From Planctomycetia bacterium (GTDB taxonomy: Bacteria > Planctomycetota > Planctomycetia > Pirellulales > UBA7805), in the NCBI GenBank assembly GCA_021413585.1, contig JAIOQB010000278.1, positions 783-64,782 on the forward strand: 64,000 nucleotides of DNA. Reading direction: 5' to 3'. Position numbers and translations under genes: made by a program. Shown here one piece after another: positions 34,601 to 49,845 of this stretch (its first letter is position 1; each line of letters starts with the position of its first letter). The notes under the pieces were generated by a model. The model did no database searches and had not been told where the DNA came from. It saw only the letters and a program-made list of their open reading frames with translations.

Positions 34601-34777
34601 GACGGAACTAAATCCCCAGTTGAAAGTGGAACTCCAATTACCACTCGTGGTACTCCAGGTTCGCGTTACAGCATGCGCAGTCATCGGCTCGGCCAGCAGT
34701 CCAACAATCACCAGCAGCATCCACGGAAGGTGGTAGATGCGGCTAAGGCTGCGGTGATTGGATTTTTTATTAGTCAT
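22676..34777 (-). CDS. giant (4033 aa) PEP-CTERM-anchored surface repeat protein with autotransporter-associated beta-strand (PATR) repeats
   Basis: ORF 22676..34936 trimmed to ATG 34777 (MTNKKSNHRSLSRIYHLPWMLLVIVGLLAEPMTAHA, GGAGAG upstream). PATR-type repeats (KDGNGTLTLAVASNYTGTTTISAGALNVQN) run over about 30880-34500. Ten ~110-aa repeats (VYNHSAPTLTIAGGNNQS...) cover about 27545-30880. About eleven ~117-aa repeats (GNVYDHASGS...VIVGY...NAAGFRVNLKTTNDGP...LTYADDSALAGAS) cover about 23650-27545. A unique C-terminal domain ends in a PEP-CTERM tail. Confidence 0.9.
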   Translation of the reverse strand: MTNKKSNHRSLSRIYHLPWMLLVIVGLLAEPMTAHAVTRTWSTTSGNWSSTFNWGFSSVPNAAGDIANIDNAISSNATITIDTTSRTIGILNIGDTDDTNSFTIAASGGASLIFDNNASHAQINQESSSNGDTISAPILLKGSFLDIANADADTFTISGGISAGSSGTKTITNLGGSTGAVLLSGSITNNLGTVAVVQNSGTSALTLSGSANTFTGGVTLTTGTLNINSTTALGATASTLTITAGTINNTSGSAKTLANNNAQTWNGDFAFTGSSDLNLGTGAVSLGSAAGTSRTVTANAGTLTIGGVISNGTTANSLIKAGAGTMTFSGTAANTFTGATTVNAGTLVLDKSDNVTAVAGSLTIGDGSGTDVVLLASNNQIASTSIVTINTGGILRTDGFEATIAGLTGTGTVTNDSATSGNDTLLTINVASGSNTFSGIIQDGSFGNVGITKSGAGTQIFSGANIYNNATSIIAGVLNIQNSSALGDPVTGGTSVTAGAALQVQGGIAVGAEVLTLNGTGVATDGALRNISGTNSWAGGVVLGSASRINSDAGTLTITGGITGTGLALSVGGAGDTTIQTNGINTSTGGTLTKDGNGTLTISATSNYTGNTTISDGVVNIQNATALGTTGSTSVASGAALQLQNSIAVSGQALTLNGTGVSADGAMRNISGTNSWAGAVTLGTASRINSDAGTLTLSGGITGTGLGLTVGGAGNTTVQTTGINTSTGGTLTKDGNGTLTLAVASNYTGTTTISAGALNVQNAAALGTTAAGTSVTSGATLQLQGGIAVTGETLTLNGTGVSTTGALRNISGDNSWSTAVNLATDSRVNSDANTLTLSGGITGTGNDLTVGGSGNTTISTTGITTGSLAQLIKDGSGVLTVAVTSTHTGATTINAGTLALGAAGNGTNTPLGTTATGTSVTATGAALDLDGITLSTSEALSIIGTGVSSNGALTNSDVAATYSGVVTIGTGGASIGGTGDITLTAGLTANSNTLTKVGTNVLTLNATSSRTGATNANAGNLVVGNAGALGSSGTITVNSGGELDVASGVTFTRGITLVSGGTFGGKGTYTPGSSFSITAGAHIAPGINDIGTFSINTTSNTTTFNTGSVLDIDINGANTDLLNVTGTLNTSSATSVLALNMVSPTLGKYKIAGFTTGITFTGNGNLASDGGFGAVTGLDSAYTLSVITGANGEIDLTHKADQTLTSPNPATINIITGATTSISAILSNTAPTNSTALAVALANNSGTGGTVSSLTSSSGSTVAGGSTSNIGGTFTAGAVGLGKTWSIKNTDLNAITTTATTGGTVNVYSHTAPTLTVASGNNQSIIINNSLTSATATLSNPGSSSTALDVGASLTNLTGATGSAVLAAGGTGTYTATGFVTNSVGIGKTLAVSLTAGDDQTVIGHNALAALNTSFTYNVYNHSAPTFNIAGGNNQSVIINNSLAAATVTLANTAGATPAPLDVNSLSNLTGASTVGSGASGTYTATGFVTNSVGIGKTLNVGLNAGDQQTITGANALSPFSSSFTYSVYNHSAPTLTFASGNNQSGFVGGSFANATFTLSNTVGTTPAPLDVNTLSNLTGTSGSGVVASGGTGTYTSSALDNSTAGIGKTLAVSLKAGDQQTVVGANALSTLSQTVTYNVYTHSAPTLTVATGNNQSVIVNTALSSATASLSNPGSTSAPLDVNSLSNLTGTTGSGVVAAAGTGTYTATGFVNSSVGIGKTLVVGLNAGDQQTITGANALTPLSTTFTYNVYNHSAPTLTIAGGNNQAVIINNSLAAATTTLANTAGTTPAPLDVNTFSNLSGASSVGSGASGTYTASGFVTNSVGINKTLAVSLKAGDQQTISGASALSTLNQTFTYSVYNHSAPTLTIAGGNNQSIITGGTLAAATTTLANTAGTTPAPLDVNTLSNLTGTTGSGVVASGASGTYTATGFDTTTVGLNKTLATSLLAGDQQTIVGASALSSKTANFTYNVYAHSNGVLTLNTNDNQTVIVGATAATAGLSLTNAGANNAALDVNSLTSNLTGSTGAALVAANGSQSYTGTFNTSTAGLGQTQTFTATVQDTNLSGRGSAYAASATGTINVYGHSAPTLTVASGNNQSVIINGSLAAVSVALADTAGSTPAPLDVNSLINLTGSTGSGVVASGGTGSYTATGFITNTVGLNKTLSVSLNAGDQQTITGHNGLSNLSTNVTYSVYNHSTPTLSIASGNNQSGFVGGSFANATLTLANTTGAAPAPLDVNTLSNLTGTTGSGVVASGGSGTYTSTALDSSTSGIGKTLAVSLKAGDQQTLSGANALTTLSQTVTYNVYDHAAPTLTIASGNNQSVIVGNSLSAATLSLSNPGTASAPLDVANLNHLTGTTGSNVVTTGNSASYTATGFNTAVAGIGKTLAVGLDAGDPQSLAGHNALSTLNQTLTYNVYDHASGSVVTDTLTIPDVIVGYSSPVASSNALTVNNAAGARVNLKTTNNGPNGTISLNNVSNVAAGSSGLLTATMATGKGVSNFLSAITLTYADDSALAGAQSSGLGTSSIFITGNVYDHARGFVSGSTLVIPDVFVDYASPVASTGSISVNNLTGFRVNLKTTNNGPVNSISLGNVSNIVANASAPITASLATGKSSGSFSQGVTLTYADDSSLVGASNNVGTDTITVTGNIYEHASGSTVGGSTLNFTDVIVGYGSTQSSANAVTINNAAGFRVNLKTTNNGPQNGFSMTNISSLAANSNGTITGTMAAGKAVGSYSQNLALTYADNSAIAGASNNTGTQNITLNSNVYDHSSGSVDTASLVMQDVIVGYSAPVTSNTAINVSNAAGFRVNLKTTNTGPLSGVSLSNVAGVAAGGSGALTAGLATGKGVGSYSQNISLVYADDSALAGASSITGSQTVNVSGNVLNHSNGSFNSTSVNNDSLTLDLGTVITGASTQTAGFNIANLSGANTAGLNRGTITPSGVNTSELTTDLGVNNFTNLAAGSSQAFTASMSTGTVGTLSATYTVGIGDRTDLAGATLNATPLTLNLTGDVKGHAAPTATITAGDGFSAIVGATGLSATVNLANGSGHLAGLQVSAAPSIASGSISNPGALLLAPGASQNYNATFNAGAVGAYSNQVTFTAGDDQLLTGHNALGSVTANITGTVYDHASGSVDDTTLTIADTFVGYASPLASTNSISVSNASGFRVNLKTTNDGPQNSISLGNVSGITAGNSGSISASLATGKGAGSYSQGLTLTYADDSALAGASSNVGTQAVTVTGNVYDHASGSAVGGTTLNFADVIVGYGSAQTSTNSVTVNNAAGFRVNLKTTNDGPLGGLSVNNVSGVAANGNGTVTGSLATGKGVGNYSQGITLTYADDSAIAGASSNLGTQAVTLTGNVYDHAAGSVDASTLSFANVIVGYSAPVTSSNSISVSNATGFRANLKTTNDGPVNSVSLGNASGVAAGGSSLISASLATGKAAGSFSENLTLTYADDSALAGASSNVGTQSVIASGNVLNHAVGSATVTAGNNFTAIVGTTGLSATIGVTNTAGSPASALQVQATPGIGTGSLSDPGQVFIGGIDGGAASQSYTATFNVGNTAGSFSNTVTFSAGDRQSLAGASGLASLTTTIQGTLLDHAGPSLSQTTVNFGNVLAGASVSAVNVNLQNVGANRANLVLTGVNGSGDTATLTRAGNSTGTIAANGSLSNSIGLVTSAAGNYSANYGYDVEDQNLAGGTDLATQNLAVSANVYAAAQLSANTNITLDSGSLVSIQNASATPLRASAYVDSITLSPHWTLHNSLQVGSSIAAGAGTSPLAKVNFSDAGLLNGQSLVGELTIALENDQALAGATNQDLGPLTWNLGHTVTNGVGNGTADVTDGGSYAGLNGKSDKALASVAKLVDGTNTSGDDTIVEMTWRNRTTPEANGFAASGDSAQLVSDVVKLTGTDSTVFVFEMTVGPLANNATDIYLAWLDGGIWKLANEGNHGVNTTDTALLDYQGSYQASNASLLTLGAYGYDAVAHKVWAVLDHNSDFSSLEIIPLLEGTSIPEPSTWALGLIGLIGLAWFGLRRRQVRQS
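22679..22768 (-). other. PEP-CTERM sorting signal
   Basis: C-terminal 30 aa IPEPSTWALGLIGLIGLAWFGLRRRQVRQS, comprising a PEP motif, a hydrophobic helix and an Arg cluster. Confidence 0.85.
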
Positions 34778-35133
34778 TCTTACTCTCCTGCCTGCGTTGA
34801 TCGGTCGCTTACGAAGCTTGCCCACATTCGTCGTATCCGCTCCGACCGCCAAACTTGTGCTGCTCGCCGTTCCGCAGTTCACCTCTAGCGCGGGCGGGGA
34901 GCCCGACAGCGGTGAGTGGAGTTGCCAGCGTGGCAACGTAAAAATGCACGGGGTGACCGCGCTCTCGCGTCATTCGCAAGGGCGCCGCCGGGTGTGCATT
35001 AGGTTGGGGTGGGGGGCGATTAGCGTTTCTCAAAGCGTTTCAATTGTCCGCAAAGTACTCGCCTGCTTTGAAGCCTATGATAAACAGATGCATAAACTAG
35101 TCAAGCTAAGTAGAATAAATAAGCTAACCATTT

Positions 35134-35190
35134 TGGGTGTAATGGGAAGTTTACACTACGATTTACAGGGGTTTACACTTGGCCTTTACA
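35134..35190 (+). promoter_or_regulatory. AT-rich island with two TGGG-N5 9-mers followed by four phased TTTACA direct repeats, upstream of the giant gene
   Basis: TGGGTGTAA (35134) and TGGGAAGTT (35143). TTTACA at 35150, 35162, 35172 and 35185, giving spacings of 12, 10 and 13 bp. Lies 360-410 bp upstream of ATG 34777. Confidence 0.5.
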
Positions 35191-35451
35191 GAAGTAGCGC
35201 GGACCTCGCGTGAGAAAGAAAAACACCGTAAAAACAAGCGTTTTTCTGTACTTCGACGCAGCATCGAGGTCGTCAATGAAACGAAACTCGATGCAGCACG
35301 AACGGATGGTTGGTCGCGCCGCGACCAGAGTTGCCGGCTGAATCGACCCGCGATGGGCCCTGATAAAGGGCCCAAGAAAAATGAGCGGCGAAAAGGTAGG
35401 CAAGCAGTACTCACTGCTCAAACCACTCAAACCTCAACACCCGTTTTATCC

Positions 35452-36822
35452 TTACGCGCCAAAATACCCGCGCCACGCCAGGTCCAGCACTTCGTCGCTC
35501 AGCTCCAGCTGCCGATCGCGCAGGCGGCAGATGTCGCGGCAGCGTTCGATCAGATCGCGCGGCTCGCAGCAGCGCATCGACCGCTGCTCTGTTTGATAAC
35601 GGGCGAACAGCTTGCTCAACAACTCCGCCGGGACATCGAGTCCAAGTTGCGCCGCATAGCGGCGGAAGATTTCCGAATATCGCTCCGCGTCGGGATTGTC
35701 CAAGTGAACCCGATAGCCGATCCGCCGTAGGAACGCCGGGGTCATCACCTCCTGCGGATCGAGATTCGTCGACACCACCAGCAACTGCCGGAACGGGATC
35801 GCCACCTGCTGCCCCGTTTGCAGCGTGAGAAAATCGACCTGCCGTTCCAGCGGATGGATCCAGCGGTTGATCAACTGCTCGGGCGAAACGCGCTGGCAGC
35901 CAAAATCATCGAGCAGGAACGTGCCGCCGTTCGCCTTGACGTGCAATGGCGCTTCGCAAAAACCCTGGTTGTTGCTGAAGATCAGGTCCAGCGATTCCAA
36001 AGTCAGCTCGCCGCCAACCACAATAAACGGGCGGCGGACCCGCACCCAGCGCTGGTCGATCAATCGCGAAACATTGCTCGCCGACTCCAGTGGCGTCGGC
36101 TCGTGCACCGTCGGGTCGTAGATGCGGATGATGTTGTGATCGACCCCCAGGCAATGCGGAATCCACAGCGATCCGTCGACCGCATCGTGCAGTAGGTGCC
36201 CTAGCGTTGTCTTGCCGTTGCCCGGCGGGCCGTAGAGGAACAGGCTGCGCCGCGACAGGAGCGACAGGCCGACCACCTCCACCGTTTCCGACGACAAAGC
36301 CAATTCCGAAAGCGCGGTCGACACGCCGGCGAGCGTCGGCTCGGGCAGATGATCGAACTGCCAGCGCAGACTGGCGGCATAATCGGCCAGCGACACGGGG
36401 ACCGGCCCGATGTAGTTGGAAATCTCCAGCAGCCGCAGCGCCTGCTCGCGGCCGCGGTCCGTGATCGCCACATGGTGATTGAACACGCCCACCTGGCCGA
36501 GCAGCTCGACCAGATTGTCCGCCCGCAGCCGATCGAGAAGCTGCGACGTCAGGGCAGGGGGGAGGCAGAGCCGCTGCGATGCCCACTGCGTGGTGAACCG
36601 CGGCACGCTGTACGCCAGCTTCAGCGCCAGACCTTCCAGCACCGCCAGATCGATCCCCGTTTCGGCAAGATCCGAAACAGCCTGCGGCGCCGGGATGCCG
36701 CCGATATCGACCAGGCGATGATTGGGCGTCTGTGGCACGACGGGAGCCGGCACGACAGGTGTCGCGGCCGTCGCCGGCGCGGCCGTCCGCACGCTCGTTG
36801 ATTCTTGTTGGATCTTCAACAT
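35452..36822 (-). CDS. AAA+ ATPase of unknown function with N-terminal winged-helix-like region
   Basis: 456 aa. Walker A LFLYGPPGNGKTT, Walker B GGTFLLDDFG, sensor-1 LLVVSTNL, and Arg-rich AFLRRIGYRV. The N-terminal ~200 aa include LLDRLRADNLVELLG...VAITDRGRE. The start lies 60 bp downstream of the tadC stop on the same strand. Confidence 0.75.
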   Translation of the reverse strand: MLKIQQESTSVRTAAPATAATPVVPAPVVPQTPNHRLVDIGGIPAPQAVSDLAETGIDLAVLEGLALKLAYSVPRFTTQWASQRLCLPPALTSQLLDRLRADNLVELLGQVGVFNHHVAITDRGREQALRLLEISNYIGPVPVSLADYAASLRWQFDHLPEPTLAGVSTALSELALSSETVEVVGLSLLSRRSLFLYGPPGNGKTTLGHLLHDAVDGSLWIPHCLGVDHNIIRIYDPTVHEPTPLESASNVSRLIDQRWVRVRRPFIVVGGELTLESLDLIFSNNQGFCEAPLHVKANGGTFLLDDFGCQRVSPEQLINRWIHPLERQVDFLTLQTGQQVAIPFRQLLVVSTNLDPQEVMTPAFLRRIGYRVHLDNPDAERYSEIFRRYAAQLGLDVPAELLSKLFARYQTEQRSMRCCEPRDLIERCRDICRLRDRQLELSDEVLDLAWRGYFGA

Positions 36823-36882
36823 GCGGCGGATTGCAATTTGGACACGGTCAATCGTTTAGAGATTCGCGTTAACCGGCGGCGT

Positions 36883-37806
36883 TTAGTTCCAGCTTTGCAG
36901 CACTTCGAGAAACCGGATCAGGGCCGTGCCCATCATGATGATGTAGAGCGCAGGAAAAATACAAAGCACCGTGGGGAAGATCAGCTTCACCGGGGCTTTT
37001 TCCGCGAGTTCTTCGGCAAAGCGATAGCGCTTTTGCCGCAAGCTGTCGGCATGGACGCGCAGCGCTTTGGTGATGCTGGCGCCGAACCGCTCGGCCTGAA
37101 TGATGACGGAGGACAAGCCTCGCAATTCCTCGGCGTCGAAGCGGTCGGCGAATTGGCTCAGGGCCTCGCCCGTCGAGCGGCCCAGTTGAATCTCGCGCTG
37201 CACAATGGCCATTTCGGAAGCCAGCAGCGGATGGGCATCGTGCAATTCGCTGGCCACGCGGGAAAACGCCGCCGGCAAGCTCAAGCCCCCCTCCAGGCAA
37301 ATGACGATCACGTCCAAAGCGTCGGGGAGCGAGCGCCGCAGCACCTTCTGGCGCTTCGCCTTGCGTCCCTTCAGCCAGATCGTGGGGATGATCGTTCCCA
37401 ACAGACCGACAAACGTCCCGATCAAAATCGCAATAGGAAACGACAACAGTTGCAGTCCGAACAACGCCAAGCCCACCAGCATGGGAATGACCATGCAGAG
37501 AAACTTCACACCCAGGAAGATAGCGGACGAATGCTGTTGATACAGCCCCGCCTGCTGGAGCTGCCTCTTGAGCTTGCTGAGCTGGGCCTCGTCGTCGGGC
37601 ATCAGCACGGCGCCCATCCGCGGCAGGGCCGAGGTTTGCGACCGGCTGCTAATGCGCGTACTATTCTGCGGGCCGGGACGAACGACGTCCACCAACCGGT
37701 CAGCCACCGTGCGCTGCTTGTTGCCCAAGAGCATGGTGACCAGCAACACCATGCTGGACACAGCCGCGAACGTGGAGATCAGCAGTGGAAGATTGTCAAA
37801 GCTCAT
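36883..37806 (-). CDS. tadC: Tad pilus inner-membrane platform protein TadC (T2SS F family)
   Basis: 307 aa polytopic protein with the T2SF-domain pattern LPDALDVIVICLEGGLSLPAAF...EMAIVQREIQLGRS. Sits next to tadB and tadA. Confidence 0.85.
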   Translation of the reverse strand: MSFDNLPLLISTFAAVSSMVLLVTMLLGNKQRTVADRLVDVVRPGPQNSTRISSRSQTSALPRMGAVLMPDDEAQLSKLKRQLQQAGLYQQHSSAIFLGVKFLCMVIPMLVGLALFGLQLLSFPIAILIGTFVGLLGTIIPTIWLKGRKAKRQKVLRRSLPDALDVIVICLEGGLSLPAAFSRVASELHDAHPLLASEMAIVQREIQLGRSTGEALSQFADRFDAEELRGLSSVIIQAERFGASITKALRVHADSLRQKRYRFAEELAEKAPVKLIFPTVLCIFPALYIIMMGTALIRFLEVLQSWN

Positions 37807-37871
37807 GGTTCACCTGTCTTGTGCAAAGCCGCATGCTCATAGCTCAACGCTCACAACTCAAAACTTCCCGC

Positions 37872-38834
37872 TCAATAGTCAAAATTGATCACCTTACGAA
37901 TCCACAACGCCCCCATCGCCATCAATCCCAGCGCGGTGAGGATCAGCAGCGGGTAGCTCAGCAGCACCACCTCGTATTCATAATTGATCAGCATCAGCAG
38001 CGCGAACATGAACACCGGCAGGCTCAACAAGATGCCGGCCTGAAAGCGTCCTTGGGCGGTCAGGCTGCGAATCTTGGCGCGGATGCGATAACGTTCGCGG
38101 ACCACATCGCCGAGCTTGTCGAGCAATTCGGCCAAATTGCCTCCGGTCTGGCGATGCACCACGACGGAGAGGACGAAGATCTTGATTTCCAGGATGCCGG
38201 TGCGGCGGCCCATTTCGCGCAGCGCCCCTTCGGGCGATAGGCCGAGGTTCATTTGCTCGGTGCAATACATGAACTCGGTGGAGATCGGCTCGGCAAACTC
38301 CTCGGACACCGCGTACATGGCCTGGGAGATGGTCTGCCCGGCCCGCAGCACGCGGCTCATCAATTCAAATGCGTCGGGAAGCTGGCTGCGCAACTTCTCG
38401 ATCCGCTTGTTGCGCTTCATCAGGACGTATCCCCACGGCAGCACGCCGCAGACGCCGGCGAACACCCCCGCGCCGATCGGCCCTGCCACCGCGGCCCCCA
38501 CGATGCCGGCGAACACCGCGGTGATCGACGTGATGGCCAGCACCTGGTTGACCGTAATGTTCAACCCTGACTGCTCAATCTGATACGCCATCTTCTGCCG
38601 CCAGGGGAGATTGGCCGGCGATTTGGCGGCGGCGTCGGCGGCGATCCGCGTGAGATCCTGCGACGACAGCGCGCTGCGGACGCGCTGCCGCCCCTTGGTG
38701 CGGGACTGCTCTTCCATGCGCTCCCGCACCTTGCGGGCTTCGCTGGAACGCAAATCCGTCATCAACGAATTGATGGCAAACACGGCGATAAACACCGCGA
38801 CAAAAGCCAGAATGCTCACCAGGATGGAAATCAC
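37872..38834 (-). CDS. tadB: Tad pilus inner-membrane platform protein TadB (T2SS F family)
   Basis: 320 aa with LPDAFELMSRVLRAGQTISQAM...EFMYCTEQMNLGLS. Paralog of tadC. Confidence 0.85.
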   Translation of the reverse strand: MISILVSILAFVAVFIAVFAINSLMTDLRSSEARKVRERMEEQSRTKGRQRVRSALSSQDLTRIAADAAAKSPANLPWRQKMAYQIEQSGLNITVNQVLAITSITAVFAGIVGAAVAGPIGAGVFAGVCGVLPWGYVLMKRNKRIEKLRSQLPDAFELMSRVLRAGQTISQAMYAVSEEFAEPISTEFMYCTEQMNLGLSPEGALREMGRRTGILEIKIFVLSVVVHRQTGGNLAELLDKLGDVVRERYRIRAKIRSLTAQGRFQAGILLSLPVFMFALLMLINYEYEVVLLSYPLLILTALGLMAMGALWIRKVINFDY

Positions 38835-38853
38835 GGCTGCACCTTTCGCAAAA

Positions 38854-40191
<1,338 letters not shown>

Positions 40192-40287
40192 CCTGCACCC
40201 TTATTTCTGCAAAGTCGTACGGCAAAGTTTTGTATTTATTTCTTGTGTGTGCGTGCGTGGCGATTTTCAACGAGGACATTGCGCCTG

Positions 40288-41484
40288 TTACTTTTTTGCT
40301 TTGGCGGCGCCGCCCGACCACCAGCGGCCCAGCACACCCGATTGGCCGTTCTTGTGGTGTCCGTTTCCCGCGTGAGCGTGTTTTGGGGAATGGACGCTCA
40401 GGGCCAGACGCACCAGGCTGCGGGCGACCTTGGACGTGGGGCGTTCGATGACGACCGGCACTCCTTTGTTGTTGCCGGAGTTGATCGTGGCCGGATCGTC
40501 CGGCACATAGTGCGTCAGCGCCACGCCCAGCGCCTTCTCCGCCTTGCCAGCCGGCAATTCCTTGGGTTGGCCAAAGCGATTGACCACCACGCGGAGCTTC
40601 GCGTCGGCCACGCCCAGCCGGCCGACCTGATCGAGCAGCCGCTGCGCGCTGCACAGCGACATCATGTCCAGCCGCAGCGCCAAAAAGACGACGTCGGCCT
40701 GCACCAGCGCCGCCAATTGCTCGGGCCCCAATGAGCTATCAAGATCCATCACCGTAAACGGAAACAAGCTGCGCGACAGCGCCACCACTTGCCGCACGCC
40801 GGAGGCGGTGACTTGGGCGATCCCTTCCTCGCGGCTGGGGGCGGCCAGCAGTTGCACGCCCGAGTCGTGCTTCGTGAGCACCTGTTGGAACATGGCGGCG
40901 TCCATCCGCTCGCTCTTAAGACACAATTCGCCCAGCGTGTGCGTCGGCTTGAGATCCAGCAGCAGGGCCTGATCGCCGGCCGAAAGCCGCAGATCCAACA
41001 GCGCGGCGCGGCGATGCTTGATCGCCAGAGCGGCGGCAATGTTGACCGCCAGCGTGCTCGCCCCGCTCCCGCCGCCGCAGCCCAATATCCCGATCACCTG
41101 GCCCTGTTCGCCATCGGGTACCTGCTGCTTCGTTCGCAGGCGATTCAGCGCGGCTTCCAACTCGATTTCGACGTCGTCGAGATCGACGAACTCATGCGCC
41201 CCTTCGCGCAGCACCCGCAGGATGAACTTCGGATCGTCGGCGGCCCCCACGACGAGCATGATGCCCGCCACGCTGTGACGCAGTTCGGGTAGAACAGCCA
41301 ATGCCCGCTGCCGATCTTCGGGCACAACCAACATCACCAGGTCGTAGCGCGATCGGCTGGCGGCGTCGGCCGCCGCGTCGAGCGGGGTGATGTCGCCCGG
41401 GTCGCAATCCACGCCGCATCGCTGCGCGATGCTGCTAAGCTTGGCGCCGATCAGGTCGTTGTCAGTTACGACTAAGGCTCGCAT
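40288..41484 (-). CDS. tadZ: CpaE/TadZ-like pilus localisation protein (receiver-like N-domain plus MinD/ParA-like ATPase)
   Basis: 398 aa. N-terminal receiver-like fold (MRALVVTDND...). Atypical P-loop GILGCGGGSGASTLAVNIAAAL, as seen in TadZ/CpaE. Confidence 0.8.
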   Translation of the reverse strand: MRALVVTDNDLIGAKLSSIAQRCGVDCDPGDITPLDAAADAASRSRYDLVMLVVPEDRQRALAVLPELRHSVAGIMLVVGAADDPKFILRVLREGAHEFVDLDDVEIELEAALNRLRTKQQVPDGEQGQVIGILGCGGGSGASTLAVNIAAALAIKHRRAALLDLRLSAGDQALLLDLKPTHTLGELCLKSERMDAAMFQQVLTKHDSGVQLLAAPSREEGIAQVTASGVRQVVALSRSLFPFTVMDLDSSLGPEQLAALVQADVVFLALRLDMMSLCSAQRLLDQVGRLGVADAKLRVVVNRFGQPKELPAGKAEKALGVALTHYVPDDPATINSGNNKGVPVVIERPTSKVARSLVRLALSVHSPKHAHAGNGHHKNGQSGVLGRWWSGGAAKAKK

Positions 41485-41553
41485 CGATTCGTTTCCTCAA
41501 GTACGCGGCGCTGCGTCACATCGCTCAAAGGCATCGTGGTTCGCTGCAGGGGT

Positions 41554-42480
41554 CTAGTGCTGTTCCACGAGGATCACGCCGCGATCGTTGCCACGCAGCG
41601 TTTGAATGCTGCTGGTGGTCGACTGCGCCGGAGCGGGAACCTCCGCCGGTTTGGCGGCCGCTGCCGGGGCGGGATCTTCGGGCTTGGCCGGGGCGTTACC
41701 CAGGCCGCGGAACAACCCAGTGAAGGCGGACCAATCGGCGCCGCCCTTCGAGGCCCCTTCCTGGCTATAACGCAACTGGGCCATGGTGGCCGGGTTCGCC
41801 TTGCCGCTGCGGTGGTCGTCCGCGTTGCGGAGCGAGAGGTGCAGGTTACCCTTGTTCATCCCCAGGTCGAGCTTGGCCGCCTGATCGGGAGAAACAAGCA
41901 GCGTGGCGGTGGCCAGATCCTTGGTGTCGATTTTGTTGGTTTCCGGAGCATCGAGCACTTGATTGACCGCCAGCACTTCGATGTTCTGCAACAGCGTGGT
42001 GGTCACGCCGCCGCCCGATTTGTCGTCGGGCATCGAGTCGGTCATGGTCAGCAGGATGTCCACCTTGTCGCCGGGCATGATGAAGCCACCGCCGCCGGCG
42101 GCAACGTGCGACGTGCGGATCGTGAACGCCCGCATGCCGAAGGGAATCATCGCGGCCATGCCTCGCCCGGCGTCCTTGCTGGCCAGCTTCGCTTCCAGCA
42201 GCGGTTCGCCTTTGACCAGCGGCACGGTGGTCGTGCGACCGGCGGCGCGGGCGATGTCGGTTAGTGCTCCCGGCGGCAGCGCGGCGCTGGGCCACGGCCG
42301 AGTGGTCAGCGTTTCGGCCGACAGCACGGTGCCGCGGGAAATGTTGCCCGAGGCGATGACGATCTTCACGTCGTCCGCCTTACGGGTTTGCCCCTGGCCC
42401 GCAAGCTGGCTGACGCCCACCGCGGCCGAGCCGCCGCAGATGACCGCCAGAACGATCAAAATCATGGTGCGAACTTTCAT
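41554..42480 (-). CDS. cpaB: Flp pilus assembly protein CpaB/RcpC (SAF domain)
   Basis: ORF trimmed to ATG 42480 (MKVRTMILIVLAVICGGSAAVG). SAF-like region VKIVIASGNISRGTVL, then the RcpC-like region GDKVDILLT. Confidence 0.8.
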   Translation of the reverse strand: MKVRTMILIVLAVICGGSAAVGVSQLAGQGQTRKADDVKIVIASGNISRGTVLSAETLTTRPWPSAALPPGALTDIARAAGRTTTVPLVKGEPLLEAKLASKDAGRGMAAMIPFGMRAFTIRTSHVAAGGGGFIMPGDKVDILLTMTDSMPDDKSGGGVTTTLLQNIEVLAVNQVLDAPETNKIDTKDLATATLLVSPDQAAKLDLGMNKGNLHLSLRNADDHRSGKANPATMAQLRYSQEGASKGGADWSAFTGLFRGLGNAPAKPEDPAPAAAAKPAEVPAPAQSTTSSIQTLRGNDRGVILVEQH

Positions 42481-42580
42481 AGCATGCCTCACCGTAAAAA
42501 GAAGTTGCAGTGTGGGGAGCGGCCAGCGGCCGCGCACCGTAAGATTGCGGATCTCGTTCTATCGCCTGCCAGACTCTGTT

Positions 42581-43132
42581 CTATTGCCACCTGAGCCACA
42601 GAATAGTTCCCAATACTCCCACGGGCACCATCGCGCCGAACGGAATGACTCGCACGCGGCGGTCCGCGCCGGTCGAGAGCGTTTCGGCCAAATCGTCCTT
42701 GCCCACATGAACGCCCATCGCGGCGAAGCGTTGCACGATCAGCTTCAGCGTCAGCCAGCTCTCGCGAAATTTGCCGCGGACGATAATCATGGCCACGGCC
42801 ACCAGGCCGGCCACCAGCGCGCTGACCACGAACGCCACCACGGTTCCTTGCAAGCCGAGCCAAGCACCTACGCCCGCCATCAACTTCACGTCGCCGGCCC
42901 CCATCAGCCCCAGCAAGTGCGGCACGATCAACACGCCGAATCCAAACAGCGCGCCGAGCAGACTGGGGCCAATCCCCTGGCCGCCGGCGGCCAGACCGTG
43001 ATAGGCCAACCCGCTGATGAGCAGCGGAATCGTCAGCACGTTGTACACCCGGTACTTCCAAATGTCGGTCACCGCGGCGATGGAAGCCGCCAGCAGCGCG
43101 ACGGTCAGAGGGAGCCAGGTGATGTGTGCCAT
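42581..43132 (-). CDS. tadV: prepilin peptidase TadV/CpaA (A24 family, no methyltransferase domain)
   Basis: 183 aa polytopic protein. The two catalytic Asp contexts are AAVTDIWKYRV and GAGDVKLMAGVG. Confidence 0.85.
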   Translation of the reverse strand: MAHITWLPLTVALLAASIAAVTDIWKYRVYNVLTIPLLISGLAYHGLAAGGQGIGPSLLGALFGFGVLIVPHLLGLMGAGDVKLMAGVGAWLGLQGTVVAFVVSALVAGLVAVAMIIVRGKFRESWLTLKLIVQRFAAMGVHVGKDDLAETLSTGADRRVRVIPFGAMVPVGVLGTILWLRWQ

Positions 43133-43223
43133 GGAACGCGCTTCCTAACGAATCATTTGTCGCTAAACGACTTTTCTCAACGGCTTCTAATGCAGCGTGC
43201 AGCTATTGTCACCCACGGCCGCA

Positions 43224-43397
43224 TTACGGCAGCACGGCGTTGGTCGACGTGTAGGCCGCCTGAATCTTCGGGCCGATCAGCGCGATGGTGACCACGCAGC
43301 CGGCCACGATCAGCGCCAGCACGATGCCCAACTCCGTCACTTCCGCGGCTTTCTCGTCCGTGCAAAAACGCGTCGTCGCAGCAATCCACTTCGTCAT
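43224..43397 (-). CDS. flp: Flp family type IVb pilin (57 aa)
   Basis: Not in the ORF track because it is under 60 aa. Hand translation: MTKWIAATTRFCTDEKAAEVTELGIVLALIVAGCVVTIALIGPKIQAAYTSTNAVLP*. A T-run plus GAGAG lies upstream. Confidence 0.85.
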   Translation of the reverse strand: MTKWIAATTRFCTDEKAAEVTELGIVLALIVAGCVVTIALIGPKIQAAYTSTNAVLP

Positions 43398-43637
43398 TGC
43401 AAACTCTCTCGAAAAATGAACTACGTTTTTTTGAATAACTTTCGTCCGAGGTTCGCCGTCTGCAATCGATTCCCCCCGCGTCCCCTCAGGGCCCGAAGGC
43501 CCGTCGGGTAGCGTGGAAAACTGTTGCTGGCTCGACCGTGATGCAGCGCGTCGCGAGCGATGCAGCGCGTCGCGGCTTTGCCAGCAGCGCGGCGTTGCAG
43601 ACGGGGCGAAACTTGCCCGCCAAAACAGCCAGCGAGC

Positions 43638-43811
43638 TTACGGCAACGCGGCGTTGGTCGTGGTGTAGGCAGCCTTGATCTTCGGACCGATCAGGGCGAT
43701 GGTGACCACGCAACCGGCCACAATCAGCGCCAACACAATGCCCAACTCCGTCACTTCGGCGGCCTTCTCGTCCGCCACAAAACGCTTAGCCAAATTCATC
43801 CACATGCGCAT
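43638..43811 (-). CDS. flp: Flp family type IVb pilin (57 aa; alternative starts at 43805 and 43799)
   Basis: Not in the ORF track. Translation: MRMWMNLAKRFVADEKAAEVTELGIVLALIVAGCVVTIALIGPKIKAAYTTTNAALP*. TTTTTTTAAGGGAG lies upstream. Confidence 0.85.
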   Translation of the reverse strand: MRMWMNLAKRFVADEKAAEVTELGIVLALIVAGCVVTIALIGPKIKAAYTTTNAALP

Positions 43812-44009
43812 CTGGTCGCTCCCTTAAAAAAATGCGGAAACACAACTCGAACACACCATGCCGCGACCGCCGTCGCGGCGAAGTCAGCCCCGCTGCGTCG
43901 AGCAGCCAGGCTGAGAAACTCGCTTCGTCGGCAGCGACCTTTTGGGCGATGACCAGTGCGGCCACGCCAAAATCGCCGCTGCGGCGACAAAGTGTTCTAA
44001 TCAGTATGA

Positions 44010-44054
44010 TGGGAAAGACAGGAAATACAAGTAATGTGGGATAGCTGGGAATAA
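44010..44054 (+). promoter_or_regulatory. five in-register 9-bp units in the AT-rich island upstream of the flp-flp-tadV operon
   Basis: TGGGAAAGA, CAGGAAATA, CAAGTAATG, TGGGATAGC and TGGGAATAA at 44010, 44019, 44028, 44037 and 44046. CAGTATGA lies at 44002. The element CTGGGAATAAT recurs at 49989. Confidence 0.5.
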
Positions 44055-44197
44055 TATGACCGCTTACACCACTGTTAGTCGTAAAATGCTTTAATAACAA
44101 TACTTATGACGAAAATGTTAAGACTTCTTGACACTGAGATTTTGTTCATCAACTCTATGAACTTGACGCATTCATCCCAATTCAACTTTTGATGCCA

Positions 44198-44366
44198 ATG
44201 CCGCGCCGGTCGGGGACCGGCGGCTAACACCATTTTGCTTGTGAGCCGCTCCCCGACCGGCGCGTTTCGCAGCTGCGCGATGCTCTTCAGAGGGGAGCGG
44301 CATCCAACTATTTATTGGTGCGAACGATGCGCCGGTCGGGGACCGGCGGCTAACACCGTTTTGGCG
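44198..44366. repeat. REP-like repeats (two direct copies and one inverted partial copy)
   Basis: gcgccggtcggggaccggcggctaacacc occurs at 44203-44231 and 44329-44357. An inverted partial copy gccgctccccgaccggcgcg lies at 44245-44264. The core gccggtc-ggg-gaccggc is self-complementary. Confidence 0.75.
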
Positions 44367-44388: not shown

Positions 44389-46317
44389 TTACTTCACCAA
44401 CGCACCCTCGGTTGAACCGACGATGGTGGAGAAGATATCGGACAAGCGTTGCTGGTAGTCGGCCGGGTTGCCGGAGGCAACCGGGCTGATCTTCGGTCCG
44501 GTGGGATTGTTGGGATCCTGGACCGCGGTGCCGGAGAGACGGGCCATGCGGTCCATCATCGTTTGGTCGGAGGCCAGCCCAATCCCCACGGCGTATACGT
44601 GCCAATCCAGGGCCTGCATCATGCCGACCTGCATCATCACGGCGTTGCGTTCTTGATAATTATTATCGCTGCTGGTAAACCACTCGCCGTCCGGATTGTG
44701 CGTGGCATCGTAGCTGGTTTCGTAGTTTTGGATTGTCGTGTTGCTGCTCTGCTTGACGTTGACCACGCCGTCCGAAAGGTACACGACGACCTTATCGGCC
44801 CCCGGCCTGGCGCCGGTGGGATTCAAGGTGGGATCCAGTTGGTTCTTGGCCAGGATCAAACCGTTCTCGCCCGCCGTGCTGCTCTGGTCGTCCGCCACGG
44901 CCTGGTACGTGGTGCAGGCCTGCTTGACCGCGTTGTAGTCGCACGAGTTCACATTCAAAGGATACCGAACCACGGTATCGGCGGCCGTGTCGAACGTGAC
45001 CAGGGCCACGTGGTCCTTGGCGGATTCCGCCAGACCCGCATTCCGCTGGGCAATCGTGTCGATGGCGGCCATGATCCCCACGCGCGCGGCGTGCGTCGGC
45101 TGCTCGCGCGGCGGGAAGTTGAAGCCGTAGCCGGCGCTGGAAGGATCGGTATCCTGATGGTATGGGCAAAACGAACTGGCGGTGGACAACGGTGTGTAGG
45201 TTGAGCCCGTCACCACCCTGTTCCGACCGAAGTCCATCATGAATTGCACATAGGTCTGGTAGCCGAATTTGTTATAGAAGACGGTGGCCGCAGAACTAGT
45301 CAGCGAGGGCCACGCATCCGACGACGGATTGTCGGCCGACGAGATCCCATACGAATTCTGGTTCGCGGGCACACTGCCGGTGTAGTTGCTGTAGTTGGTC
45401 CGCTGTGCTGTGGTAAGCGTGTATGGCTGGATGATGTAATCCAGATACACTTCCCAATAGGCGTAGTTCGTCGTGCTGTTGGGAACCGGCTTGGCCAGCG
45501 GCATCACGGTGGCCAGTTGCGTGTCGATGATCCACTTGTAGCCCTTCTGCTTCCGTGTGGCCGCCGAGTCACTCGTGAGTATCTTGTACGTCGCGTTGAT
45601 CGTCGAGCCGCTGAGATACCCGCCGTTTCTCGTCAGGTTGTAGAACGCCTGGTTGTCCTGCGTTACGTTGCCGTTGCCCATGTATTGCAATGTGCCCGGA
45701 TAGGCGCCATAGCCAAAATCCGCGAAGACGTTGGTCATCATCGTGCTGCCGAGGTTGGGATATCCCGACGGGGCGTACTTCGAGTCGATGGCGGCAGTGG
45801 CCCAGATTTCCGTGTCGTTGTTCATCGACCCGGACAAGTCCATTACGAACACAATATCGCGCGGGTTGCGCACGGCGATCGACGTGGCGGTGACATTCGA
45901 TTGCGTCAGCCCCAAAATACCGGCAAAGCTCAGCGGGACCGGATTGCCGGTGGCTTGCGTTCGCGTGACGGTGACCTGGACCGCGTTCGTGGACGAATTA
46001 CTGGGAGTGAACGTCTTGGTGGAGGAGTTCCAGGTGCCGAGCTGCACGTTCTGGCTGGTGAGCACGTTGCCGTGGTTGGGATGATTCAAGTTGGCGTAGA
46101 GCTGGGCGGTGCTGGTCACCGTGGTGAGGTCGGGAATGTAGCGCACCGCGGCCAGGGCCGCCGCATCGGCGGTGGCTTGCAGTTGGGTGCGGACCAGCAC
46201 CGTGGTCCCCATGTCGATGGCACACGCCACCATCCCCAGCAAGACCACCAGCAACACCGCGGACAGCACCAGCAGGGCCCCACCCCGACAACGCTTCTTG
46301 GCCTTGAGACGTTTCAT
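44389..46317 (-). CDS. tadG: TadG-like pilus-associated protein with von Willebrand factor A domain
   Basis: ORF trimmed to ATG 46317 (MKRLKAKKRCRGGALLVLSAVLLVVLLGMVACAIDMG, a TadE/G-like N-terminus). MIDAS-type motif DIVFVMDLSGSMNNDTE. Confidence 0.8.
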   Translation of the reverse strand: MKRLKAKKRCRGGALLVLSAVLLVVLLGMVACAIDMGTTVLVRTQLQATADAAALAAVRYIPDLTTVTSTAQLYANLNHPNHGNVLTSQNVQLGTWNSSTKTFTPSNSSTNAVQVTVTRTQATGNPVPLSFAGILGLTQSNVTATSIAVRNPRDIVFVMDLSGSMNNDTEIWATAAIDSKYAPSGYPNLGSTMMTNVFADFGYGAYPGTLQYMGNGNVTQDNQAFYNLTRNGGYLSGSTINATYKILTSDSAATRKQKGYKWIIDTQLATVMPLAKPVPNSTTNYAYWEVYLDYIIQPYTLTTAQRTNYSNYTGSVPANQNSYGISSADNPSSDAWPSLTSSAATVFYNKFGYQTYVQFMMDFGRNRVVTGSTYTPLSTASSFCPYHQDTDPSSAGYGFNFPPREQPTHAARVGIMAAIDTIAQRNAGLAESAKDHVALVTFDTAADTVVRYPLNVNSCDYNAVKQACTTYQAVADDQSSTAGENGLILAKNQLDPTLNPTGARPGADKVVVYLSDGVVNVKQSSNTTIQNYETSYDATHNPDGEWFTSSDNNYQERNAVMMQVGMMQALDWHVYAVGIGLASDQTMMDRMARLSGTAVQDPNNPTGPKISPVASGNPADYQQRLSDIFSTIVGSTEGALVK

Positions 46318-46395
46318 ATTGCACCTCGTGAGATTGAAGCCGATGTGATGCACAAAATGTTTGCCGTGCCCCGGCTTGAAATCACTGTTTTCTAG

Positions 46396-48414: not shown

Positions 48415-49845
48415 TTACAACAGGTCATATTTATGCAGCTTCTTGTACAACGTCACCCGGCTGATTCCTAAATGCCGGGCGGCCAGCGAGCGGTTGTTGC
48501 CGCTCTGGTCCAGCGCGTTGCGCAACAGACGGAACTCCACGTCAAAACGGGCTTCGTCCAGCTTGGATGCCACCGGCCGCTGCGGTTCGACGCTGCCCAC
48601 GTGGCTTCCCTGCTGGCGCACCGCCGCCGGCAAATCCTCCAGATCGACCGGACGGCCAGGGTACAACGCCACGGCGCGTTCCATCACGTTGCGCAACTCG
48701 CGGATATTGCCCGGCCAGGAATAATCCTCGATCGCGGCCAGCGCCTGCGGCGAAATCGCCGGCGGCAGGCAATCGTGCAACGCCGCCACGTCCGCCAGAA
48801 AACGGTTCGCAAACGGGACAATCACCGAGCGCCGCTCGCTCAGTGGCGGCAACCGTAGCGTCACCACGTTGACGCGATAAAACAGGTCCGAGCGAAATTG
48901 CCCCGCCGCCACCTGCTCTTCCAGCGAACGCGTGGCGGTCACGATGATCCGGGCAGTCAGCGGCACCGGGCGATCGCTGCCGACCGGTTCGAACACCTGT
49001 TCGTCGATCGCCCGCAACAACTGGGCCTGAGCGGCCGGCGGCAAGGCGTCGACGTCGTCCAGCAGAATCGTCCCATTCTGGGCAGCGGAAAGCTTGCCGG
49101 CGCGATCCGCTTCCACTCCGCCAAATGAACCCTTTACATGGCCAAATAATTCGCTCTCGACCAGACTGGGACTAAGCGCGCTGCAATTGATCGCCACAAA
49201 CGGTTCGTTCGGCCGAGCCGACAATTCATGAAACAATCGGGCCAGGTGGGTCTTGCCCGTTCCCGTTTCACCGGTCAGCAGCACGGGCGTGGCCAGCGAT
49301 GCCAGTTGACGCATCTGCTCGACGATGCCGGCCATCTCTTCGGACTTGTCGTACAGAAACGGCGGCTGGGAACCGATGCTGCACAAACCCGCATTGAGCC
49401 TGGCGGCGTTCGGAAACGCGCCGTAGTACGACTTGAACGTCAGCATGTCGACGACAAACGCCAGGCGAAGCAGATCCAACGGCCGCGCCAGATAGTCCGC
49501 CGCGCCGTGTGCCAGCAGCTTGACCGCCTGCGGAGTCTCATAGCGATCGCAGATCGGCACCGCCGCGGTACTGCGTCCCGAGCTGCGGCACTGGTCGATC
49601 AAATGCAGTGCTTGTGCTTCGTCGAGGGCTGGGGAAGGCTCGGTTGCCGTGTCCTTGCTGTCGGCGCCGGCAACGTGCATCAGCATGACCGCCGGTCGGG
49701 CGGTCTGAAGCTGGCGCTCTGCATCGGCCACACGATCGACGACGTTCAATCGGCAGCGGCCCACGGAAACCATGGCCTGCTCGACCGCGGCGCGTAGCGC
49801 AATATCGCTGGTAACCAGCAGTGCAGTCGCAGGCATGATAAACAA
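48415..49845 (-). CDS. NtrC-family AAA+ transcriptional activator (receiver-like N-domain, sigma-54-interaction-type AAA+ domain, Fis-type HTH)
   Basis: Walker A LLTGETGTGKTHLARLFH, then ESELFGH. GSFGGV occupies the GAFTGA position. C-terminal HTH NRSLAARHLGISRVTLYKKLHKY. Confidence 0.85.
   Translation of the reverse strand: MFIMPATALLVTSDIALRAAVEQAMVSVGRCRLNVVDRVADAERQLQTARPAVMLMHVAGADSKDTATEPSPALDEAQALHLIDQCRSSGRSTAAVPICDRYETPQAVKLLAHGAADYLARPLDLLRLAFVVDMLTFKSYYGAFPNAARLNAGLCSIGSQPPFLYDKSEEMAGIVEQMRQLASLATPVLLTGETGTGKTHLARLFHELSARPNEPFVAINCSALSPSLVESELFGHVKGSFGGVEADRAGKLSAAQNGTILLDDVDALPPAAQAQLLRAIDEQVFEPVGSDRPVPLTARIIVTATRSLEEQVAAGQFRSDLFYRVNVVTLRLPPLSERRSVIVPFANRFLADVAALHDCLPPAISPQALAAIEDYSWPGNIRELRNVMERAVALYPGRPVDLEDLPAAVRQQGSHVGSVEPQRPVASKLDEARFDVEFRLLRNALDQSGNNRSLAARHLGISRVTLYKKLHKYDLL

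Follow-up and report, generated by a model that had tools for sequence, protein, structure and literature searches.

Bacteria use Tad/Flp pili to attach, form biofilms, sense surfaces and prey, and some also take up DNA through them; the list of pilus parts is treated as settled: Flp, TadV, RcpCAB/CpaBC, TadZ, TadA, TadB, TadC, TadD and TadE/F/G. Other envelope machines have accessory AAA+ remodellers. ClpV of the type VI secretion system (T6SS) and EccA of the type VII secretion system (T7SS) each combine a ring ATPase with an N-domain for substrate recognition; they are encoded within the cluster of their machine, are dispensable for its core architecture and are present in only some systems. 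MoxR proteins, also of the AAA+ group, act on partners with a VWA domain. The best structural match to the protein that concerns us here is Q8U0N8 of Pyrococcus furiosus (PDB 8P49), published as a homo-hexamer whose N-terminal domain is flexible, without a Pfam assignment or a known function. We analysed an AAA+ gene that closes the minus-strand part of a complete Tad/Flp locus (35452-54665) in a Planctomycetia bacterium, within a stretch of 64,000 nucleotides (hereafter the window; GenBank assembly GCA_021413585.1, contig JAIOQB010000278.1, positions 783 to 64,782). The family to which its product belongs is probably an accessory part or a regulator of the Tad pilus. Comparative genomics supports the reading of this protein as a putative Tad-coupled AAA+ ATPase of an uncharacterised type; two other ideas in a preliminary description of the locus, that the protein is of the classical AAA clade and that it serves a neighbouring giant adhesin, are unsupported.

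The open reading frame (ORF) starts with ATG, encodes 456 aa and follows tadC on the same strand, with a gap of exactly 60 nt between the tadC stop and the ATG, as the preliminary description had it; the strand, which it had not assigned to 35452-36822, is minus. TadC, TadB, CpaF/TadA, TadZ/CpaE, CpaB and a prepilin peptidase precede the gene on that strand, and its description as the last gene of a tad operon is supported. We compared gene neighbourhoods in the 80 best loci from species-representative genomes, using tblastn with the Tad proteins of the window over a range of 10 kb, clustering of all ORFs, and targeted tblastn and hidden Markov model (HMM) searches. TadA, TadB or TadC was encoded within 10 kb of the AAA+ gene in 17 of the 80 loci, always on the same strand. 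We also counted as tad-linked a locus with its upstream sequence cut off, which has genes for a secretin, a protein of homology cluster c69, a TPR protein and a sigma-54 activator downstream (L033), and two loci with TadE and TadG-VWA genes upstream (L012 and L075), for a total of 20/80 species-representative loci, from Planctomycetota and Vicinamibacteria. All eight proteobacterial replicons examined were tad-linked (Rhizobium, Sinorhizobium, Ensifer, Salipiger, Burkholderia, Paraburkholderia, Photobacterium), as were all three informative long metagenome contigs. Clustering of all ORFs identified tad genes as the only neighbours common across lineages. The AAA+ gene was on the tad strand in every linked case except Salipiger, where it is convergent to tadC.

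The position of the AAA+ gene within tad loci differed between lineages. Four Vicinamibacteria loci (L043, L059, L060, L073) have it directly after tadC, like the window; it also follows tadC in S. fredii NGR234 (pNGR234b) and Ensifer adhaerens (tblastn) and on Rhizobium etli CFN42 p42e, where RHE_RS25680 starts 15 nt past tadC. Many other Planctomycetota have it after tadE-tadE-tadG, two loci (L008 and L011) between tadG and the TPR/secretin genes, and Gemmataceae between a small unknown gene and a TPR gene. In Burkholderia pyrrocinia (L2Y90_RS34800), B. stagnalis, Paraburkholderia terrae and Photobacterium, the gene is mid-operon, flanked by those for the prepilin peptidase and CpaB. Overall, linkage was found in at least five phylum- or class-level lineages and at least three operon positions, with gaps of 15-110 nt in most annotated cases. 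By a rough estimate, chance would place a gene within 10 kb of a tad locus about 1% of the time (one to three tad loci per 5-9 Mb genome), and recurrent linkage in unrelated lineages against this expectation supports a role in the Tad system. Tad-linked members fell on several deep branches of a neighbour-joining tree, indicating that the linkage is ancestral or was acquired repeatedly. An independent metagenome sample of close homologues (44-57% identity) had tad genes in 7/24 loci with at least 5 kb of upstream sequence and in 5/17 with at least 8 kb. Hence, homologues were not scattered without tad linkage; rather, linkage was partial, at ~25-30% of the sampled non-proteobacterial homologues. 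The proposal that the position of the gene reflects a link to the pilus machinery is borne out by the presence of the family in tad loci of Planctomycetota, Vicinamibacteria and Alpha-, Beta- and Gammaproteobacteria.

The same neighbourhoods bear on the possibility that the protein is a general-purpose AAA+ ATPase, active in protein quality control or nucleic-acid handling, and that its place beside tad genes is hitch-hiking or neutral synteny. Most homologues are orphans in variable contexts without a conserved neighbour, and among unlinked close homologues we found no neighbour common to more than 4 of 35 loci. Some lineages show synteny of their own with unrelated genes (LigA in Chloroflexota; a class IV aminotransferase or patatin in Myxococcota), and the remote homologue Q8U0N8 is archaeal. 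Against this stand the number of lineages and operon positions in which tad linkage occurs, the short same-strand gaps, a chance expectation of ~1% per locus, the finding that tad genes are the sole neighbours common across lineages, and the placement of the AAA+ gene mid-cluster in L008, L011, Burkholderia and Photobacterium. We therefore regard a general-purpose role as unlikely.

Relatives of the protein form 1043 clusters at 50% identity (E <= 1e-30), and at least 591 species-representative genomes encode one. The family ranges over Planctomycetota, Myxococcota, Chloroflexota, Verrucomicrobiota, Acidobacteriota (Vicinamibacteria) and Desulfobacterota, and 76 proteobacterial plasmids or chromids also match it; no phage matches were found. 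More than 5283 full-length homologues were scored in a 90%-identity database, the best 120 at 50-63% identity. The Walker A Lys, the Walker B Asp-Asp, the sensor-1 Asn and Arg366/Arg367 are each conserved in 92-93 of 93 aligned relatives, with N353 and R366/R367 invariant (93/93). The number of homologues and the retention of these motifs argue that the ORF is not a chance one; the conservation also argues for an active ATPase, and the family looks, from its sequences, catalytically competent. The Walker B Asp-Asp is invariant in the family, whereas Asp-Glu is the usual form. As a separate observation, FHA (P0151, P0189) or HDOD (P0132) domains precede the winged helix-turn-helix (wHTH)-AAA+ unit at the N-terminus of some members.

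All of the motifs quoted in the preliminary description were present by translation: Walker A GPPGNGKT (residues 198-205, nt 36208-36231), an Asp-Asp Walker B within LLDDFG (residues 303-308, nt 35899-35916), the sensor-1 stretch VVSTN (residues 349-353), FLRRIGYR (residues 364-371) and, in the N-terminal third, the segment LLDRLRADNLVELLG...ITDRGRE. An AlphaFold2 (AF2) model built from 35 homologues had a predicted local distance difference test score (pLDDT) of 88 and a predicted template modelling score (pTM) of 0.82. Note that the alignment and the model were built from 35452-36819, without Met1, such that model residue n is protein residue n+1. The gene and the parts of its product are as follows.

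35452..36822, minus strand: wHTH-AAA+ ATPase gene, the final gene of the tad operon; ATG-start ORF of 456 aa, with homologues and an AF2 model
36718..36822, minus strand: Pro/Ala-rich tail, residues 1-35; variable, predicted disordered (pLDDT <50 for model residues 1-32) and unaligned among homologues
36421..36717, minus strand: conserved beta-hairpin (AP.AP...TG[IL]) followed by a MarR-like wHTH, residues 36-134; from a separate AF2 model
35698..36255, minus strand: AAA+ alpha/beta core, residues 190-375; from model secondary structure, fold matches and motif conservation in 93 sequences
35932-36177, minus strand: beta-rich insert between Walker A and Walker B, residues 216-297 (~80 residues), within the AAA+ core
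35791-35838, minus strand: pre-sensor-1 beta-hairpin, residues 329-344, within the AAA+ core
35710-35733, minus strand: Arg fingers R366/R367, within the AAA+ core
35455..35697, minus strand: helical lid, residues 376-456; four helices in the model
35542-35568, minus strand: putative sensor-2 Arg422 (CEPRDLIER), a role suggested by position and the (x)R(D/E)L motif

In the model, residues 36-134 form a beta-hairpin and then a helix-strand-helix-helix-wing unit, and a helical linker joins the winged helix to the AAA+ core. The strands of the second hairpin are model residues 328-332 and 338-342, between helix alpha3 (313-326) and the sensor-1 strand (346-351). The pattern of this stretch, LL..l.e..V.flTLqtG..v.vPf..l.v.stN, appears to us to be of the MoxR/sigma-54/BchI type. 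Invariant residues of the insert are P222, D236, D256, R258, W259, P265, P292, K296 and G300.

The model contains one AAA+ module, and no Pfam, NCBIfam or PADLOC model reached its threshold for the window protein, in agreement with its description as an uncharacterised single-module AAA+ protein. By contrast, the assignment to the classical clade fell. The second region of homology is mixed in this respect, since N353 and R366/R367 fit the classical clade and Arg422 in the lid, conserved in 86/93 sequences, does not, if its putative sensor-2 role is correct. The hairpin before sensor 1, the ~80-residue insert between Walker A and Walker B, the lid Arg and the best fold matches together place the modelled AAA+ module outside the classical clade. 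Pfam PF00004, the model for classical-clade AAA proteins, scored 16.6 bits against a cut-off of 21.2, with an E-value of 5.8e-4 for the best member. Local matches to spastin/Vps4-like proteins span only Walker A and the sensor-1/Arg-Arg stretch, and were probably the source of the classical-clade idea. The best fold matches of the AAA+ core in Foldseek were instead Q8U0N8/8P49 (E 2e-14), the LonB ATPase domain (E 4e-10), and NorQ/CbbQ (MoxR) and BchI (E 1e-7 to 4e-9), with further matches to RuvB, the sigma-54 activators NtrX, LuxO, FlrC and VpsR, MCM and ComM.

We also considered membership of other known families. The MoxR models fell short (bpMoxR 20 bits against 27; AAA_5 13 against 22), and weak Pfam matches to bpMoxR, AAA_5 and Mg_chelatase were present in 20-29 of 35 members. 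A Lon protease was rejected in that the protein ends 81 residues past the AAA+ core, in the helical lid, with no Lon_C match and no S16 domain. Sigma54_activat gave an E-value of 0.002 for the best member and weak matches in 13/35; the window protein has neither a GAFTGA loop nor a C-terminal HTH (no HTH_8 match), which indicates that it is not a sigma-54 enhancer-binding protein. Neither of the core Tad ATPase families (T2SSE or CbiA/ParA) was among the matches of the AAA+ protein; both were found in neighbouring genes. A match to the MarR HMM also failed, with MarR_2 scoring 13.7 bits against 27 and with a helix and wing that are not basic. Of the memberships tested, only remote homology to the uncharacterised Q8U0N8 succeeds. 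This homology extends into the Walker A-Walker B insert (profile E 9.3e-6; phmmer E 1.7e-3, query residues 207-403).

A weak resemblance to the IetA/IteA proteins raised the possibility of an anti-phage defence ATPase, through local matches to PADLOC IetA (E 8e-7) and NCBIfam IteA (27 bits). The IteA score compares with a cut-off of 510 bits (NF042959), the matches cover only Walker A and the sensor-1/Arg-finger stretch, an IetS-like protease partner was not seen in any locus, there were no phage matches, and the genomic context is one of pilus genes. We consider a defence role extremely improbable.

The alignment with Q8U0N8 crosses the insert (IP...IIR[IV]FD..HE ... APL..[KR]A.GG), whereas identity is only 16-19%, the protein is archaeal, and it has LILTE in place of the invariant Asp-Asp Walker B; as its function is unknown, it provides no functional information for the family. 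LonB of Thermococcus onnurineus (PDB 4ZPX/3K1J), the second-best fold match, has in common an AAA+ core with a pre-sensor-1 hairpin. It also shares the G..h.A..G.hFhD[DE] signature that precedes Walker B. However, the window protein lacks the S16 protease domain and membrane anchor of LonB, and LonB lacks an N-terminal winged helix. The MoxR chaperones (NorQ, CbbQ, RavA) and BchI match in fold, and TadG, encoded in Tad loci, is a VWA protein. In P0019, P0101 and P0053, the gene immediately upstream of the AAA+ gene is TadG-like, with the VWA domain confirmed only in the TadG of the window and in L075; the TadG-VWA gene of the window is ~7.5 kb from the AAA+ gene, and the two are not adjacent in rhizobia or Burkholderia either. 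Compared with MoxR proteins, the window protein is ~150 residues longer, has a winged-helix N-domain and the 80-residue insert, and scores below the Pfam thresholds. ClpV and EccA belong to the Clp/Hsp100 and CbbX-like clades, with two AAA+ modules in ClpV and a TPR N-domain in EccA, and are an analogy only, with no sequence relationship. In function they are nevertheless the nearest analogies and a precedent for an accessory AAA+ remodeller, and MoxR-VWA pairs are a further analogy, given the TadG-VWA of Tad loci.

The N-domain modelled alone had a pLDDT of 87. In a Foldseek search of the PDB, all of its top 50 matches were MarR-family wHTH proteins (E 1e-4 to 2e-3; template modelling (TM) scores 0.42-0.51, ~0.48), which agrees with the wHTH-like N-domain proposed from the sequence and points to a MarR-type fold for the modelled unit. 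The fold and the pattern of the recognition helix resemble those of MarR regulators. By contrast, the N-domain is fused to an AAA+ ring rather than forming a MarR dimer, its charge is neutral and its Pfam score is below threshold: among 93 relatives, mean net charge was +0.2 for the winged helix, -0.8 for the recognition helix and -0.2 for the wing. A neutral winged helix fits a protein-binding adaptor better than an operator-binding domain.

These observations bear on whether the protein is an ATP-dependent transcription regulator, in which the winged helix would bind DNA at flp/tad or other surface-behaviour promoters, the AAA+ module would be a nucleotide-controlled oligomerisation switch, and input may come from Ser/Thr-kinase/FHA or cyclic di-GMP (c-di-GMP) signalling. 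Consistent with such a regulator, the top 50 structural matches of the N-domain are to DNA-binding regulators, the recognition helix ALTSQLLDRL resembles ALTRMLDRL of E. coli MarR, and one NCBI record names a homologue as a MarR family transcriptional regulator. The invariant Asp-Asp Walker B, the sigma-54 activators among the Foldseek matches with weak Sigma54_activat matches in 13/35 members, and the FHA/HDOD fusions together with FHA-EAL and Ser/Thr-kinase neighbours in a Pirellulales clade point the same way, and action in trans would account for the many orphan copies. However, there is on average no net positive charge on the winged helix, its recognition helix or its wing, the Arg usual at a wing tip is missing, MarR_2 is far below its cut-off, and GAFTGA and a C-terminal HTH are absent. 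Dedicated regulators are already present, a sigma-54 activator in the window and several other loci and a MarR regulator in the P. terrae locus. Moreover, the most strongly conserved residues lie in the ring insert, not in the winged helix, and a pure switch would give little reason for such conservation of a pore-side insert. On the strength of the uncharged winged helix, the existing regulators and the conservation of the ring insert, we favour a protein-directed accessory remodeller or switch of the Tad system, which we propose tentatively as the leading reading, over a DNA-binding regulator, which we view as a rather unlikely but serious candidate. Also in favour of a remodeller, the fold is closest to those of ring-forming remodellers and translocases (Q8U0N8, LonB, NorQ/CbbQ, BchI, RuvB).

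Most family members have T-G-K-K at the tip of the pre-sensor-1 hairpin, and the window protein and its close relatives have T-G-Q-Q (93-sequence alignment). A basic tip in most of the family would suit a ComM-like motor that translocates or processes DNA taken up through Tad/Flp pili, as would the presence of RuvB, MCM and ComM among the fold matches, an N-domain fold of DNA-binding type and the position of LigA immediately upstream in one Chloroflexota clade. Published work reports that Micrococcus and Liberibacter take up DNA by means of Flp/Tad pili. Nevertheless, a DNA motor is very unlikely: the tip is not basic in the window protein and its clade, comEA, comEC and dprA were not among the conserved neighbours, the winged helix is neutral, and the closest folds (Q8U0N8, LonB, MoxR) are not helicases.

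The remainder of the Tad/Flp locus of the window comprises a long minus-strand series and a divergent plus-strand unit. The order on the minus strand is sigma-54 activator, two Flp pilins, two TadE-like proteins, TadG-VWA, two Flp pilins, prepilin peptidase, CpaB, TadZ, TadA/CpaF, TadB, TadC and the AAA+ protein.

36883..37806, minus strand: tadC (T2SSF platform protein); Pfam T2SSF E 3.9e-17
37872..38834, minus strand: tadB (T2SSF platform protein); Pfam T2SSF E 9.8e-19
38854..40191, minus strand: tadA/cpaF pilus motor ATPase; Pfam T2SSE E 2.2e-61
40288..41484, minus strand: tadZ/cpaE ParA/MinD-type ATPase; Pfam CbiA 28.8 bits against 25.4
41554..42537, minus strand: cpaB/rcpC; TIGR03177 pilus_cpaB E 1.7e-60
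42581..43132, minus strand: prepilin peptidase (tadV/cpaA); Pfam Peptidase_A24 E 4.9e-18
43224-43397 and 43638-43811, minus strand: two Flp pilin genes; 57-aa ORFs with the Flp-type motif ...AEVTELGIVLALIV..., read from the sequence
44389..46353, minus strand: TadG-like pseudopilin with VWA (DLSGS, resembling a metal ion-dependent adhesion site, MIDAS); Pfam Tad, Tad_C and VWA
46396-46845 and 46866-47336, minus strand: two TadE-like genes; the first Pfam TadE E 1.6e-13, the second in the same homology cluster (c23)
47814-47987 and 48195-48428, minus strand: second pair of Flp pilin genes; ORF translations almost the same as those of the first pair
48415..49845, minus strand: sigma-54 enhancer-binding protein at the head of the tad operon; Pfam Sigma54_activat E 2.2e-56 and HTH_8
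50493-52313, plus strand: secretin of the divergent unit; Pfam Secretin and T2SS-T3SS_pil_N
52402-53448, plus strand: ORF for a 348-aa protein (cluster c69) of the divergent unit, with no Pfam match
53535-54665, plus strand: TPR/TadD-like protein of the divergent unit; TPR families

The NCBIfam model TIGR03819 scored 348 bits for tadA, just under its cut-off of 373 bits, and the tadA/cpaF call therefore rests on Pfam T2SSE and locus context. Likewise, AAA_31 was below its cut-off for tadZ and the NCBIfam CpaE-homologue model scored 81.8 against 154.45 bits, such that the tadZ/cpaE call rests on CbiA and locus context. The four Flp pilins are near-identical 57-aa paralogues (…AEVTELGIVLALIVAGCVVTIALIGPKI…), arranged as two pairs flanking the tadE-tadE-tadG block; the ORF at 48195-48428 reaches 77 aa from an upstream ATG. 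The trio of secretin, c69 protein and TPR protein recurs in the planctomycete loci L008, L011 and L033.

Individual loci of relatives had additional features. A Pirellulaceae metagenome-assembled genome (L011) has two tandem AAA+ paralogues, at 6194-7549 and 7573-8997, within its tad cluster. An L,D-transpeptidase gene lies between tadZ and cpaF in AAA+-bearing alphaproteobacterial clusters (L084 8013-8576, R. etli p42e; L085 16721-17281, Salipiger). On the 70-kb plasmid pPT70 of Paraburkholderia terrae (L087), the AAA+-bearing tad cluster is beside genes for VirB9/VirB10, an ATPase of the type II secretion/type IV pilus/type IV secretion (T2SS/T4P/T4SS) family, an integrase and an AbiEii toxin; this setting on a small plasmid indicates that this type of locus can be mobile. 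LigA (NAD-dependent DNA ligase) is encoded ~25 nt upstream of the AAA+ gene, on the same strand, in one Chloroflexota clade (L023, L027, L037, L042), an adjacency that may be lineage-specific synteny or may hint at a nucleic-acid role. In a Pirellulales clade (L075 4958-14521; L045 11241-14648; L064, L065, L071), the AAA+ gene adjoins one for a ~1100-aa fusion of a Ser/Thr kinase with Tubulin_2 (FtsZl1), and in L075 and L065 a divergent gene for an FHA-EAL protein is also beside it. In L075, the TadG-VWA gene and two TadE genes are 2.6-4.5 kb upstream, and there is no TadA, TadB or TadC gene within 10 kb. The FtsZl1 paper of Makarova and Koonin noted planctomycete kinase-FtsZl1 fusions and their VWA partners, and does not mention the AAA+ protein.

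On its other side, the AAA+ gene of the window is followed by an AT-rich spacer and a giant gene on the same strand.

34937-35451: AT-rich spacer between the AAA+ gene and the ORF of the giant protein
35420-35401, minus strand: weak hairpin in the AT-rich spacer downstream of the AAA+ stop
35104-35077, minus strand: single promoter-like site in the spacer ahead of the giant gene
22676-34936, minus strand: ORF of the giant protein with PATR repeats and a PEP-CTERM motif; 4033 aa counted from Met54 (nt 34777)

The giant gene starts (Met54) 674 nt downstream of the AAA+ gene, and the length of 4033 aa reported previously matches when counted from this Met. The only hairpin and promoter-like site that we found lie downstream of the AAA+ gene, in the spacer, suggesting that the AAA+ gene is the last cistron of the tad operon and that the giant gene would be a separate unit. 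The preliminary description had proposed that the AAA+ protein might take part in the export or regulation of its neighbour, and folding could be added to these roles. Adjacency in the window, at 674 nt on the same strand, is all that favours such a helper of the PEP-CTERM/PATR protein. A homologue of the giant protein was found in none of the 91 related AAA+ loci examined, which effectively refutes the idea, and the hairpin and promoter-like site in the AT-rich spacer separate the two genes. PEP-CTERM proteins are, moreover, sorted by exosortase and not by a cytoplasmic AAA+ protein. We regard service to the giant protein as having next to no likelihood.

The link to Flp pili has been noticed by annotators. 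The NCBI name of a Sinorhizobium homologue (P0323) is 'putative ATPase with chaperone activity, associated with Flp pilus assembly'; this protein is 75% identical to the R. etli p42e protein, which in turn shares 36% identity with the window protein across 90% of its length. We count this independent naming in favour of a Tad role. We take 'Predicted ATPase with chaperone activity, associated with Flp pilus assembly' to be a SEED/RAST role name. It is a context-based label, silent on the winged helix, the AAA+ clade and the distribution beyond Proteobacteria, and we found neither an experiment nor a family model behind it. Another NCBI record of a homologue reads 'DNA-binding MarR family transcriptional regulator'. 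No paper on the AAA+ protein emerged from literature searches, whether these used a topic, an accession, a locus tag or the wording of the role name, and the strings 'associated with Flp pilus' in three papers refer to TadZ or TadG. Thus, the earlier statement that no Tad component of this architecture has been described holds for the literature searched and does not hold at the level of annotation: the Flp link is known there, and the winged-helix-AAA+ family itself is undescribed in that literature.

Several observations weigh against an accessory remodeller of the Tad pilus. No adjacent tad genes were present in 60 of the 80 species loci or in 12 of the 17 metagenome loci with at least 8 kb upstream, ~70% of close metagenomic homologues are unlinked orphans, and linkage is absent from whole clades (Myxococcota, Chloroflexota, Verrucomicrobiota and one Pirellulales clade); this incompleteness lowers our confidence in a Tad role. 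We looked for a conserved small partner beside the AAA+ gene in tad-linked loci, and found only TPR/TadD-like proteins and one Planctomycetota-specific protein of 155-187 aa. There is thus no conserved partner gene to point to a target. The family is absent from the MacSyFinder Tad model. To our knowledge, canonical, well-studied Tad systems work without it. As for the protein itself, its pore-side loops have no obvious aromatic-hydrophobic pore-loop motif, its N-domain has, by Foldseek, the fold of DNA-binding repressors, and an Asp-Asp Walker B occurs more often in AAA+ proteins of the switch type, for example DnaA and DnaC. Lastly, no Shine-Dalgarno-like element was seen before the AAA+ ATG.

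In the mechanism that we infer, including hexamer formation, ATPase activity, co-transcription, target and direction of effect, the AAA+ gene would be co-expressed with the Tad/Flp genes as the final tad cistron. Its product would form a cytoplasmic ATP-hydrolysing ring, probably a hexamer, of subunits with a MarR-like winged helix, an AAA+ module bearing the pre-sensor-1 hairpin and a large insert in the helix-2 region, and a lid, and would act as a chaperone-like remodeller or switch accessory to the Tad system. The winged helices on the N-face of the ring may recruit a partner, and the pore-side elements (D236, D256, R258, W259 and P265 of the insert, with the hairpin tip) may couple ATP turnover to a step that remodels or frees a cytoplasmic Tad component. 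The target could be the CpaF/TadZ/TadBC platform or the cytoplasmic leaders of prepilins or of pseudopilins such as TadG-VWA, and the outcome would be control over pilus assembly or disassembly.

A bolder extension, which is possible but doubtful, is that the family constitutes an ancient third class of Tad/Flp ATPase beside CpaF/TadA and TadZ, in the form of a ring AAA+ motor that bears a winged-helix adaptor and takes an active part in remodelling the machine. Such a motor might power disassembly or retraction, act on TadG-VWA and other pseudopilins by loading or extracting them, or reset CpaF. If so, it would be the Tad counterpart of ClpV in the T6SS and EccA in the T7SS, and the orphan and FHA/HDOD-fused copies would tie it to Ser/Thr-kinase and c-di-GMP surface-sensing pathways. 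For a control or remodelling activity in the switching of CpaF between extension and retraction and in the handling of minor pilins, a conserved extra AAA+ gene inside the tad operons of rhizobia, Burkholderia, Photobacterium, Acidobacteriota and Planctomycetota is an obvious candidate, and R. etli CFN42, S. fredii NGR234 and Burkholderia spp. are among the tractable hosts that carry it. A function for this gene would give the first handle on a family of about 1000 50%-identity clusters that has no Pfam or NCBIfam model and for which 8P49 is the only solved relative.

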